Part shown: in pieces, positions 5,018 through 37,055 of the stretch
How positions within the stretch are numbered: the stretch's first letter is position 1
Layout of the letters: the number at the start of each line of letters is the position of its first letter
NCBI RefSeq assembly: GCF_017348835.2
Contig: NZ_CP071375.1
Source: Escherichia coli
GTDB lineage: Bacteria > Pseudomonadota > Gammaproteobacteria > Enterobacterales > Enterobacteriaceae
Direction: 5' to 3' (one strand)
Length of the DNA: 64,000 bases
Position numbers and translations under genes: made by a program
The notes under the pieces: generated by a model
The model's input: only the letters and a program-made list of their open reading frames with translations
Database searches by the model: none
What the model was told of the DNA's origin: nothing

Positions 5018-5200
5018 TCGCATCAGGCATTTATCGCCTGATGCGACGCTGGCGCGTCTTATCATGTCTGGGATTTGATGCCTTTATCACAACAGGGACG
5101 AGGCCCGTAGATCGGATAAGGCGTTCACGCCGCATCCGGCGGTTGCGCTCCGATGCCTGATGCGACGCTGGCGCGTCTTATCAGGCCTACAAAGGCATAC
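5018..5200. repeat. REP/BIME cluster (several palindromic units, gcctgatgcgacgctggcgcgtcttatcaggcctac type)
   Basis: Imperfect palindromes with REP consensus repeated in alternating orientation between convergent ygfZ and yqfA. Confidence 0.75.
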
Positions 5201-6354: not shown

Positions 6355-7815
<1,461 letters not shown>

Positions 7816-7936
7816 TTACCCGATGTGCCTGATGCGATACGCTCATCAGGCCTGGCACTCTTTTAATATATTGAGCTCGCAAGATTTTATATTACGCCTC
7901 AGCCGAAACACACAAAGCGCACTTTATTAACAAGCT

Positions 7937-7958
7937 AAAAAGGCGCCGAAGCGCCTTT
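7937..7958. terminator. GC hairpin aaaaaggcgccgaagcgccttt, likely bidirectional terminator (bglA / gcvP)
   Basis: Perfect stem ggcgc-cgaa-gcgcc flanked by A-run and T-run. Confidence 0.6.
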
Positions 7959-7980
7959 AGAAGATAGTCGAATCAGTGAA

Positions 7981-10854
7981 TTACTGGTATTCGCTAATCG
8001 GTACGCAGGAGCAGAACAGGTTACGGTCGCCGTAAACATCATCCAGACGTTTCACCGTCGGCCAGTATTTGTCTGCCACGCCTGCCGGGAATACCGCAAC
8101 TTCACGGCTGTACGGATGCGCCCACTCGGCGACCAGTTCGCTCTGAATGTGCGGCGCGTTCACCAGCGGGTTATCTTCCAGCGGCCAGACACCGGCTTTC
8201 ACCTGGTCAATTTCTGCGCGGATAGCCAGCATCGCGTCGATAAAGCGATCCAGTTCCACTTTGCTTTCAGATTCAGTCGGTTCAACCATCAGCGTACCCG
8301 CCACCGGGAACGACATCGTCGGCGCGTGGAAACCGTAGTCGATCAGGCGCTTGGCAATATCCAGCTCGCTGATGCCGGTTTCTTCTTTCAGCGGGCGAAT
8401 ATCGAGAATACATTCGTGCGCCACGCGACCGTCGCGACCGGTATACAGCACCGGGAAGGCATCCTGCAGGCGGCTTGCAATATAGTTGGCGTTGAGGATT
8501 GCCACCTGGCTTGCTTTTTTCAGCCCTTCTGCGCCCATCATGCGGATGTACATCCAGCTGATTGGCAGGATAGAGGCGCTACCGAACGGTGCCGCAGAAA
8601 CCGCGCCCTGACGGGTTAACATGCCTTCGATTTGCACCACGCTATGACCCGGTACAAACGGAGCCAGATGCGCTTTCACACCGATCGGTCCCATACCCGG
8701 CCCACCACCGCCGTGCGGAATGCAGAAAGTTTTATGTAGGTTAAGGTGTGAAACGTCCGCACCAATAAAGCCCGGCGAGGTGATGCCAACCTGGGCGTTC
8801 ATGTTCGCGCCATCAAGGTAAACCTGACCGCCGAACTGATGCACGACTTCACACACTTCACGGATCGTTTCTTCATACACGCCGTGGGTGGAAGGATAGG
8901 TCACCATGATACAGGAGAGGTTATCGCCCGCCTGTTCCGCTTTCGCGCGCAGATCAGCCAGATCGATGTTGCCGTTTTTATCACATGCCACAACCACCAC
9001 CTGCATTCCTGCCATATGTGCAGAAGCAGGGTTAGTGCCGTGCGCAGAAGCCGGGATCAGGCAGATATCGCGATGCCCTTCGTTGCGGCTTTCATGATAA
9101 TGACGAATCGCCAGCAGGCCCGCATATTCGCCCTGTGCGCCAGAGTTCGGCTGCATACAAACGGCGTCGTAACCGGTCAGTTTCACCAGCCAGTCAGCCA
9201 GCTGCGCAATCATCTGCTGATAACCTTCGGCCTGCTCCGGCGGGCAGAACGGGTGCAGTTCGGCAAATTCCGGCCAGGTGATCGGGATCATCTCGGCGGC
9301 GGCGTTCAGTTTCATGGTGCAGGAACCCAGCGGGATCATCGCCTGATTCAGCGCCAGATCTTTACGCTCCAGCGAGTGCATATAGCGCATCATTTCGGTT
9401 TCGCTGTGGTAGCGATTAAACACCGGATGGGTGAGGATTTCGTCGTCGCGCAGCATCGCAGGCTGGATAGAGCGGCTGTCGTGAGCCACGTCTTTGTCCA
9501 GCGTGTCGATGTCCAGCCCGTGGTTATCCCCCAGTAGTACGCTGAAAAGCTGCATCACGTTTTCGCGCGTGGTGGTTTCATCAAGGGTGATCCCAACCGC
9601 GTTCAGGATATCGCTACGCAGGTTGATTTCAGCCGCTTCGGCACGCGCCAGTACGCCCGCCTTGTCGGCCACTTCCACACACAGAGTGTCGAAATAGTGC
9701 GCATGGCGCAGTTTCAGACCTTTTTGTTGCAGGCCCGCCGCCAGAATATCGGTCAGACGGTGAATGCGGTTAGCGATACGTTTCAGGCCAACCGGGCCGT
9801 GATAAACGGCATACAGGCTGGCGATGTTTGCCAGCAGTACCTGGGAAGTACAAATGTTGGAGTTCGCTTTCTCACGGCGAATATGTTGCTCGCGAGTCTG
9901 CATCGCCATGCGCAGCGCGGTATTGCCAGCTGCATCTTTCGATACACCGATAATACGGCCTGGCATTGAGCGTTTGTATTCGTCTTTCGCCGCAAAGAAT
10001 GCCGCGTGTGGGCCACCGTAACCCATCGGTACGCCAAAGCGTTGCGCCGAACCAAAAACAATATCCGCGCCCTGTTTACCCGGCGCAGTTAACAGCACCA
10101 GCGCCATAATATCAGCGGCAACGCTGACCACAATTTTGCGTGATTTCAGTTCGCTGATAAGCGCAGTGTAGTCGTGAATTTCACCGGTAGTGCCGACCTG
10201 CTGTAACAGCACACCGAACACGTCCTGATGGTCGAGCACTTTTTGCGCGTCATCGACAATCACTTCAAAACCAAAGGTTTCTGCACGGGTGCGGACCACA
10301 TCCAGCGTTTGTGGATGCACGTCGGAAGCCACGAAGAAGCGGTTGGCATTTTTCAGTTTGCTGACGCGTTTCGCCATCGCCATTGCTTCGGCAGCAGCAG
10401 TGGCTTCGTCAAGAAGAGAAGCAGAGGCCATATCCAGCCCGGTTAAATCCAGCGTTACCTGCTGGAAGTTGAGCAGTGCTTCAAGGCGCCCCTGGGAGAC
10501 TTCAGGTTGATACGGAGTATACGCGGTATACCAACCTGGATTTTCCAGCATGTTACGCAGGATAACCGGCGGTAGCTGCACGGCGGTGTAACCCATGCCG
10601 ATGTAAGACGTGAAGCGTTTATTGCGACTGGCAATAGCCTTGAGTTCCGCCAGTGCGGCGTATTCGGTCGCCGGTGCGCCAACTTGCGGCGGGGTCGCAA
10701 GCTGAATATCTTTCGGCACAATCTGGCCGGTCAGCGCGTTTAACGATTGTGCACCAACGGCATTCAGCATTTCTTGCTGTTGCGCGGCGTCCGGTCCGAT
10801 ATGGCGTTCAATAAAAGCGCCGCTGTTTTCAAGCTGGCTTAACGTCTGTGTCAT
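7981..10854 (-). CDS. gcvP: glycine dehydrogenase (decarboxylating), P protein
   Basis: 957 aa from ATG 10854 ([20 protein letters not shown]...); ORF track 985 aa includes an upstream extension. Confidence 0.95.
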
Positions 10855-10972
10855 GAGCGATGGTTCCTGAAACGTGCAGTGAATTGTGAACCTCTCTCCT
10901 TGCGAAGAGAGTGAGGGTGAGGCGTGAATATTCCTCACCCCGATCCTCTCCCGCAGAAGAGGAATAAAGCCG

Positions 10973-17794: not shown

Positions 17795-17978
17795 ATTTCT
17801 CTGAGATGTTCGCAAGCGGGCCAGTCCCCTGAGCCGATATTTCATACCACAAGAATGTGGCGCTCCGCGGTTGGTGAGCATGCTCGGTCCGTCCGAGAAG
17901 CCTTAAAACTGCGACGACACATTCACCTTGAACCAAGGGTTCAAGGGTTACAGCCTGCGGCGGCATCTCGGAGATTCC
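17795..17978 (+). ncRNA. ssrS: 6S RNA
   Basis: Sequence atttctctgagatgttcgcaagcgggccagtcccctgagccgatatttcatacc...ggagattccc matches remembered 6S RNA over its full length; sits between zapA and ygfA. Confidence 0.9.
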
Positions 17979-18601: not shown

Positions 18602-18649
18602 GGGCGACACACCTGCATCGCCCTGATTGACATCGTTGATTCTTTGACC

Positions 18650-18800
18650 TAATTTAGTGAGTAAGGGTAAGGGAGGATGACTCCTCCCCTGAGACTGACT
18701 GTTAATAAGCTGGGAAACTTATGAGTAACAGTACAATCAGTATGATGACAAATCGCATCATAACCCTTCTCCTTTAAGCCCTCGCTTCGGTGAGGGCTTT
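18650..18800 (+). ncRNA. sibC: SibC antitoxin sRNA (boundaries approximate)
   Basis: Antisense to ibsC, ends in hairpin gccctcgcttcggtgagggc at 18778-18797; position between ygfA and serA as remembered for sibC. Confidence 0.55.
18702..18761 (-). CDS. ibsC: type I toxin IbsC (19 aa hydrophobic peptide)
   Basis: Reverse strand atg atg cga ttt gtc atc ata ctg att gta ctg tta ctc ata agt ttc cca gct tat taa = MMRFVIILIVLLLISFPAY; below the ORF-track size cutoff. Confidence 0.8.
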   Translation of the reverse strand: MMRFVIILIVLLLISFPAY

Positions 18801-36939: not shown

Positions 36940-37055
36940 TGTGCGCTTTGTCATGCCGGATGCGGCGTGAACGCCTTATCCGGCCTACAAAAACCTGCGA
37001 ATTCAATATATTGCAGGATACGTGTAGGCCTGATAAGCGTAGCGCATCAGGCAAT
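36940..37055. repeat. REP/BIME elements
   Basis: gccggatgcggcgtgaacgccttatccggcctac and gtaggcctgataagcgtagcgcatcaggc palindromic units. Confidence 0.65.

Follow-up and report, generated by a model that had tools for sequence, protein, structure and literature searches.

The locus considered here lies in a 64-kb stretch of DNA (hereinafter the window), in a region that is 100% identical to that of the pig isolate Escherichia coli PE164. The genes bglA and gcvP, both intact, converge on a spacer of exactly 165 bp (7816–7980), which is bounded on its right by the minus-strand stop codon of gcvP (7981–7983). In the left flank, bglA shows 97.4% nucleotide identity to its counterpart in K-12 MG1655 (99.2% at the protein level) and, as in K-12, is preceded by yqfB, trhA and ygfZ. 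The first-pass annotation had placed a REP-like palindrome and a terminator hairpin between two genes 165 bp apart; both elements are present, and they are listed with the other features of the junction in Table 1. An Rfam search of positions 7600–8200, even at E ≤ 1, recovered no RNA family, indicating that no sRNA or riboswitch is hidden there. Elsewhere in the window, matches above the Rfam gathering threshold comprise 6S RNA (ssrS, 17795–17978), a Sib antitoxin RNA adjoining ibsC as in strain IAI39 (18627–18777), the REP-derived naRNA4 in the ygfZ–trhA spacer (5110–5187) and the ES036 sRNA (36989–37031).

Table 1. Features of the bglA–gcvP junction; coordinates are those of the window, except in the last row, where they belong to the loci named
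Feature	Coordinates	Strand	Basis
bglA (6-phospho-β-glucosidase), intact, left flank of the variable slot	6382..7815	+	NCBIfam PRK15014, 1148.8 bits; RefSeq annotation of PE164
Putative left deletion junction, TTACCCGATGT	7816..7826		Alignments with transporter alleles; identical in both compact variants (window, O145), near-identical in E. coli C
REP-type palindrome, GCCTGATGCG-ATACG-CTCATCAGGC	7827..7851		Palindrome pattern, head motif, fold, E. albertii counterpart
Putative AT-rich remnant (~83 bp) of the deleted transporter cassette, from its far-upstream part	7852..7934		24-nt identity at 7911–7934 and collinear AATATATTGA...TAAGA block
Intrinsic terminator of the gcvTHP operon, UUCG loop, U5	7935..7960 (stem 7939–7946/7951–7958)	-	Fold and conservation
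gcvP (glycine decarboxylase), intact, right flank of the variable slot	7981..10854	-	TIGR00461, 1840 bits; RefSeq annotation of PE164
Unrelated 3–4 kb cargo at the junction in other genera	L011 6432–10075; L021 7213–10450; L019 6432–10571		

The hairpin proximal to gcvP has the properties of an intrinsic terminator, with a GC-rich stem-loop and a U-run 21 nt past the gcvP stop. Read on the minus strand, GGCGC-UUCG-GCGCC followed by U5 folds at −13.8 kcal/mol with a z-score of −2.6 (hairpin at about 7937–7958), and the structure is kept in every allele of the junction as well as in Citrobacter, Kluyvera, Phytobacter and Salmonella. A promoter/terminator pattern scan returned zero calls, this hairpin included; the scanner probably missed it because it extends the stem into the adjoining A/T tracts, and as both the folding and the conservation are clear, we rejected the null result as evidence against the terminator. 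In the reverse reading, where only UUU follows, the hairpin probably doubles as a weak stop for bglA, thus acting in both directions. By analogy with established REP biology, the REP together with this reverse reading would presumably end or stabilize the bglA message.

The other structured element in the spacer, the palindrome GCCTGATGCGATACGCTCATCAGGC, is the sole match to its pattern in the window, against an expectation of 0.00. It combines a REP head with an imperfect palindrome (GCCTGATGCG...CATCAGGC), lies 12 bp past the bglA stop in the extragenic space between the two genes, and folds into a hairpin with a centroid energy of −12.9 kcal/mol (z −2.1). In all, the window has 10 copies of the REP head motif GCCKGATGCG as against 0.5 expected, in keeping with a dispersed multi-copy family, and the spacer REP shares a 15-nt exact match with the REP in the ygfZ–trhA spacer. 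The naRNA4 model, which does match 5110–5187, does not match the spacer element. REP elements of E. coli were reportedly described by Stern in 1984, and their classification, together with that of the BIMEs, is said to go back to Gilson and Bachellier. The spacer REP resembles these in its extragenic position between convergent genes, its GCC(G/T)GATGCG head, its imperfect palindrome and its many copies, but differs in being a lone short unit with a 5-nt loop and a stem of 8–9 bp.

In K-12 MG1655, the corresponding order is bglA (b2901), ygfF (b2902, minus strand) and gcvP (b2903), so that the statement in the first-pass annotation that a ygfF gene separates the two genes in K-12 is borne out; a K-12 junction as compact as that of the window would have removed the contrast, which thus stands. 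In a pairwise alignment, homology to K-12 is perfect up to the TAA of bglA, is then lost, and returns only at the gcvP terminator CTAAAAAGGCGCC (window position 7935). Between the bglA stop and the terminator, K-12 has about 1,020 bp and the window 120 bp, and the two segments are mutually unalignable; hence, the difference is a replacement rather than a clean indel. Likewise, MAFFT and BLAST comparisons of the spacer with the K-12 insert found no homology, and tblastn and blastn searches for ygfF across the 64-kb window found no remnant (best E = 5.1). Together with the alignment gap, this upholds the claim that the strain lacks ygfF, and the window does not belong to the K-12-type allele. 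The two loci share the flanking genes, their orientation and the gcvP terminator hairpin, whereas K-12 has a Y-type REP, ygfF and two GC-rich hairpin repeats, none of which occur in the window junction. The two repeats of the K-12 ygfF–gcvP spacer are the hairpin/G-quadruplex elements HPGQ 32/33 (PMC5100583). A 35-nt match (83%) to this GC-rich repeat is found in the window at 10921–10952, in the gcvH–gcvP spacer; thus, a copy of the K-12 hairpin-repeat family is present nearby, though the ygfF-linked copies are absent.

To place the two arrangements in the species, we counted alleles over 5,426 complete E. coli genomes. Of these, 3,057 (56%) have ygfF and the compact spacer is found (121-bp query) in 2,343 (43%), while a third state, an insert coding for a 297-aa Phenol_MetA_deg protein, occurs in just 18. 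The three classes are near-complementary, summing to 5,418 of the 5,426 genomes. Among the compact-spacer matches, 1,915 of 2,343 are at ≥95% identity, and 417 form a variant of ~87% identity, exemplified by O145 RM12367. The compact junction is an ordinary, very common gene-content allele and is not specific to this strain. It is visible in the existing RefSeq annotation and the class of variation is thoroughly known; literature searches on ygfF and on bglA with gcvP returned no paper describing a bglA–gcvP polymorphism. Strains with the compact allele include O157:H7, O55:H7, UPEC 536, O25b:H4, IAI39 and E. coli C, and those with ygfF include K-12, O111:H8 and O121. We take the former to represent phylogroups E, B2 and F plus a single A strain, and the latter phylogroups A and B1. 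Such a distribution of the compact allele over E, B2, F and A implies exchange between lineages. E. coli C and K-12, both presumably of phylogroup A, yet carry different alleles, which points to exchange within the species. As a separate observation, in the IAI39 locus (L098, 2213–6405), barA, which lies beside rlmD and gudD, is interrupted by an IS1397 element of the IS3 family and annotated as two pseudogene fragments.

The third state of the junction is best seen in E. albertii and in a divergent 'E. coli' species representative (L005), which carry a minus-strand ORF of 297–298 aa between bglA and gcvP, preceded by about 450 bp of AT-rich upstream DNA; ORF and upstream DNA together make up what we term the transporter cassette. 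Its product matches Pfam PF13557 (Phenol_MetA_deg), is labeled 'transporter' in RefSeq, and belongs to a 90% cluster of 2,745 members that come mostly from Salmonella enterica. The gene occupies the bglA–gcvP site without ygfF in 4 of 4 S. enterica genomes sampled and in E. albertii, and the transporter allele is thus known from S. enterica and E. albertii as well as from a cryptic Escherichia lineage and the above 18 E. coli genomes. An expectation that ygfF occupies this site in Salmonella LT2 was set aside; the Salmonella genomes examined carry the transporter gene. Compositionally, the cassette stands apart from its neighbors, with a GC content of 45% in the ORF and 30% in the upstream part as against 51–56%.

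The ORF of the 18 E. coli carriers shows 96.2% nucleotide identity to that of Salmonella, as compared to ~87% for bglA and gcvP (L085, 1494–2444, and L084 against L088, 6001–6894), and the raised identity is confined to the insert. An insert at 96.2% inside flanks at ~87% indicates that the cassette was exchanged laterally between Salmonella and E. coli. The E. albertii copy, for its part, is 88–89% identical to all others. Loci with both ygfF and the transporter gene, as a two-gene ancestor with differential loss would have had, were sought, and none was found among 98 loci. Two further loci merit separate mention. In E. coli WB61 from a roadside hawk (L087, NZ_CP020025.1 3672457–3675445), gcvP has been joined by a deletion to a 3′ fragment of the transporter gene and is annotated in RefSeq as a pseudogene that lacks its C-terminus; this strain may be a natural gcvP-defective E. 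coli. In the Salmonella genome LR133909.1 (L091), gcvP, trhA, sdhE and xerD are all broken up, each over several short ORFs, more likely reflecting a frameshift-rich assembly than real pseudogenization.

Alignments show that the 120 unique bases of the window spacer are collinear with the gcvP-proximal end of this transporter allele. The 24 nt at 7911–7934, which extend past the K-12 homology boundary, are identical at all positions (24/24) to the transporter alleles of E. coli LD67-1 and Salmonella. The AATATATTGA...TAAGA block is likewise collinear (z 3.4, 5/500 shuffles), and a complete REP stands in the transporter allele of E. albertii at the place that corresponds to the REP of the window (z 6.9, 0/500 shuffles). 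Shuffle tests against three ygfF-allele spacers were not significant (z −1.3 to 2.1), and the longer ygfF–gcvP spacers of strain N96 and of a cryptic Escherichia (L092), used as a control, show no homology to the window spacer. Thus, as expected of a deletion derivative, the homology of the spacer is to the transporter alleles only (24/24 nt; z 3.4–6.9, versus 0.8–2.1 for the ygfF alleles). No coding remnant of the Phenol_MetA_deg ORF was found in the 64-kb window, and the spacer is accordingly filed as a derivative rather than a member of the transporter lineage. Compared with the transporter allele, the window shares about 130 collinear bp at the gcvP-proximal end, with the full REP of E. 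albertii at the same place, but is without the 297-aa ORF, its terminator and most of the AT-rich upstream DNA; the spacer is 165 bp as against 1,396 bp, a net loss of 1,231 bp.

Hence, we propose, with a probability of roughly 0.78, that the compact spacer would be a transporter allele minus about 1.23 kb, and not a K-12-type locus from which ygfF was excised. The identical left junction in both compact variants points to a single deletion event. Going by 7 nt only, TTACCCG at that junction may represent the left half of a hairpin, TTACCCGCCAGTCGGCGGGTAA, that forms the bglA/transporter terminator in the transporter allele. We infer the polarity of the deletion by parsimony and from the distribution in Salmonella and E. 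albertii rather than from a diagnostic scar: the transporter allele is shared by several genera and is as diverged between them as genera are, some source is required for the 120 bp, and half of a hairpin may have stayed behind. Certain observations count against this proposal. The two compact variants differ by ~13% over the 120 bp, a large distance if the deletion is young, and outside the terminal 24 nt and the REP, the spacer is only ~65–70% similar to the transporter alleles (z 2.4–3.4). Moreover, as REPs are mobile, the match with the E. albertii REP could be a convergent insertion rather than positional homology.

The same alignments might be read with the opposite polarity, whereby the compact spacer came first and the cassette was inserted right after the bglA stop, thereafter spreading to Salmonella and E. 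albertii. What homology is retained is all to one side of the cassette, a structure that also fits an insertion; in its AT-richness, the cassette resembles acquired DNA, and it has clearly moved between genera, as the contrast between insert and flanks in E. coli and Salmonella attests (96.2% versus 87%). We nevertheless consider this order of events unlikely. It would need an unexplained origin for the 120 bp replacing ygfF; the transporter allele is as diverged as genera are, the E. albertii copy being 88–89% identical to all others; the gene is present in all four sampled S. enterica, in which species the exact protein is widely indexed; the compact allele has been seen only in E. coli; and the possible half-hairpin TTACCCG is left at the junction.

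As for ygfF itself, the outgroup scan used one genome per species with BglA, followed by tblastn, and E. fergusonii, E. marmotae, E. ruysiae and most cryptic clades lay outside this sample. The order bglA–ygfF–gcvP was found in at least eleven other genera or species of Enterobacterales: Citrobacter werkmanii, Citrobacter sp. FP75, Pseudocitrobacter, Kluyvera, 'Escherichia sp. ESNIH1', Enterobacter sp. ENT03, Siccibacter, Pluralibacter, Phytobacter, Erwinia psidii and Pantoea. Its occurrence at the same site across these genera indicates that ygfF is ancestral there. K-12 YgfF is 78–85% identical to the outgroup proteins, the same range as that between pairs of outgroups, and in a search of 5.8 billion proteins, the Escherichia/Shigella versions fall at ≥90% and all others at ≤85%, with a clean gap between them. 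Within the genus, the ygfF genes of K-12, N96 and the cryptic clade (L092) are 91.5–93.8% identical, those of N96 and L092 being 6–8% diverged from K-12, as compared to 95–98% for the flanks; on this contrast, the gene is an old resident. These comparisons argue that ygfF has long resided in Escherichia and do not support its recent gain by K-12. Its product, a short-chain dehydrogenase/reductase (SDR), has measured glucose 1-dehydrogenase activity in vitro (PMC10645960), an assignment accepted in a further study (PMC12506659). N96 (L096, 4245–4477) and the cryptic Escherichia (L092, 4596–5000) also represent a second structural type of the ygfF allele: where K-12 has the GC-rich hairpin repeats, their ygfF–gcvP spacer has a BIME-like REP pair and a duplicated copy of the gcvP terminator, the latter tandemly repeated twice in L092.

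Given the ancestral status of ygfF at this site in the family, one might suppose that the compact junction arose by simple deletion of the gene from a K-12-like bglA–ygfF–gcvP locus. Independent decay outside Escherichia lends this some plausibility: a soil metagenome-assembled genome (L012, 6485–6952) keeps only residues 99–247 of YgfF, and Enterobacter sp. Bisph1 (L014, 6435–6724) has a 290-bp gap with no ygfF. However, the 120 bp of the window match the transporter alleles, whereas no homology could be detected with ygfF alleles, be it that of K-12, N96 or L092; besides, had ygfF simply been cut out, K-12-type spacer sequence such as its REP or the GC-rich hairpin repeats should remain, and none is present. 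A simple loss is thus quite improbable.

A still more doubtful proposal is that the compact junction is original and that the A/B1 lineage acquired ygfF by insertion or import. The named strains with the compact allele presumably belong to the early-branching phylogroups B2, F and E, and ygfF was seen in A and B1 strains, a pattern by which ygfF might have been brought back through recombination with another lineage of Escherichia. Against it stand the occurrence of ygfF at the same position in many genera, the lack of any close foreign donor, the deep divergence of the Escherichia alleles (91.5–93.8%), one of them in a cryptic clade, and the K-12 allele itself, which is without the compact spacer sequence and is therefore not an insertion into it. 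Consequently, of the two options in the first-pass annotation, that this strain lacks ygfF or that K-12 gained it, the absence holds; the gain by K-12 is not supported, given the outgroup positions, the genus-typical divergence and the lack of a close non-Escherichia donor, and the simple excision of ygfF that the first option implied fails as well, because the 120 bp match a third allele. An assembly or sequencing artefact collapsing the region has a negligible chance of accounting for the junction, the same architecture being found in 2,343 independently finished genomes, reference strains included, with both flanking genes intact.

Returning to the derivation from the transporter allele, the history of the slot may be envisaged as follows. 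Its ancestral enterobacterial content would have been ygfF, as kept by K-12, with the AT-rich transporter cassette in place of ygfF as a second old allele. One deletion of about 1.23 kb, running from a few bases past the bglA stop to just before the REP, would then have produced the compact allele, leaving the REP, about 83 bp from what was once the upstream region and the conserved terminator of gcvP. What remains would act as a passive terminator region between convergent genes, in which the hairpin is predicted to end gcvTHP, and the REP with the hairpin to end the bglA transcript. Homologous recombination in the conserved flanking genes might have shuffled the alleles among lineages.

One could go further and suggest that the slot is a long-lived trans-species polymorphism, comprising ygfF, an outer-membrane-channel-like gene and an empty state, that is kept in Escherichia by selection rather than drift, and that the channel cassette has passed between Salmonella and E. 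coli (96% inside 87% flanks). We regard this as rather doubtful; if true, it would be a small natural case of balancing selection on sugar/aromatic-glucoside accessory functions beside bglA. In practical terms, the strain of the window has neither YgfF nor the putative channel. More generally, ygfF is not a core gene of E. coli: 44% of finished genomes are without it, including O157:H7, ST131-type O25b:H4, UPEC 536 and IAI39, and functional claims on ygfF based on K-12 thus do not transfer to these lineages. The locus also illustrates that the absence of a gene relative to K-12 need not mean its deletion, as the empty site would descend from a different allele. PCR across the three-state junction might offer an inexpensive marker of lineage; the bearing of the locus on biology at large is little.

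Other genera have further unrelated content at the bglA/ygfF/gcvP junction. Enterobacter cloacae DSM 26481 has a DsbD/DsbA/redoxin cluster, Enterobacter sp. BIGb0383 an SDR together with MFS and LysR proteins, and Enterobacter sp. Ag1 a two-component system (histidine kinase/response regulator) with a cytochrome b561 and a molybdopterin oxidoreductase. The bglA–gcvP slot is a recurrent insertion/recombination hotspot between two core genes and is multi-allelic in Escherichia. The concept of gene-content hotspots between core genes in E. coli and Enterobacteriaceae was reportedly set out by Touchon et al. in 2009. The slot differs from such hotspots in its small scale (0.1–4 kb) and in having no associated integrase, tRNA or IS, but resembles them in that unrelated cargo is found at one and the same core-gene junction across lineages.
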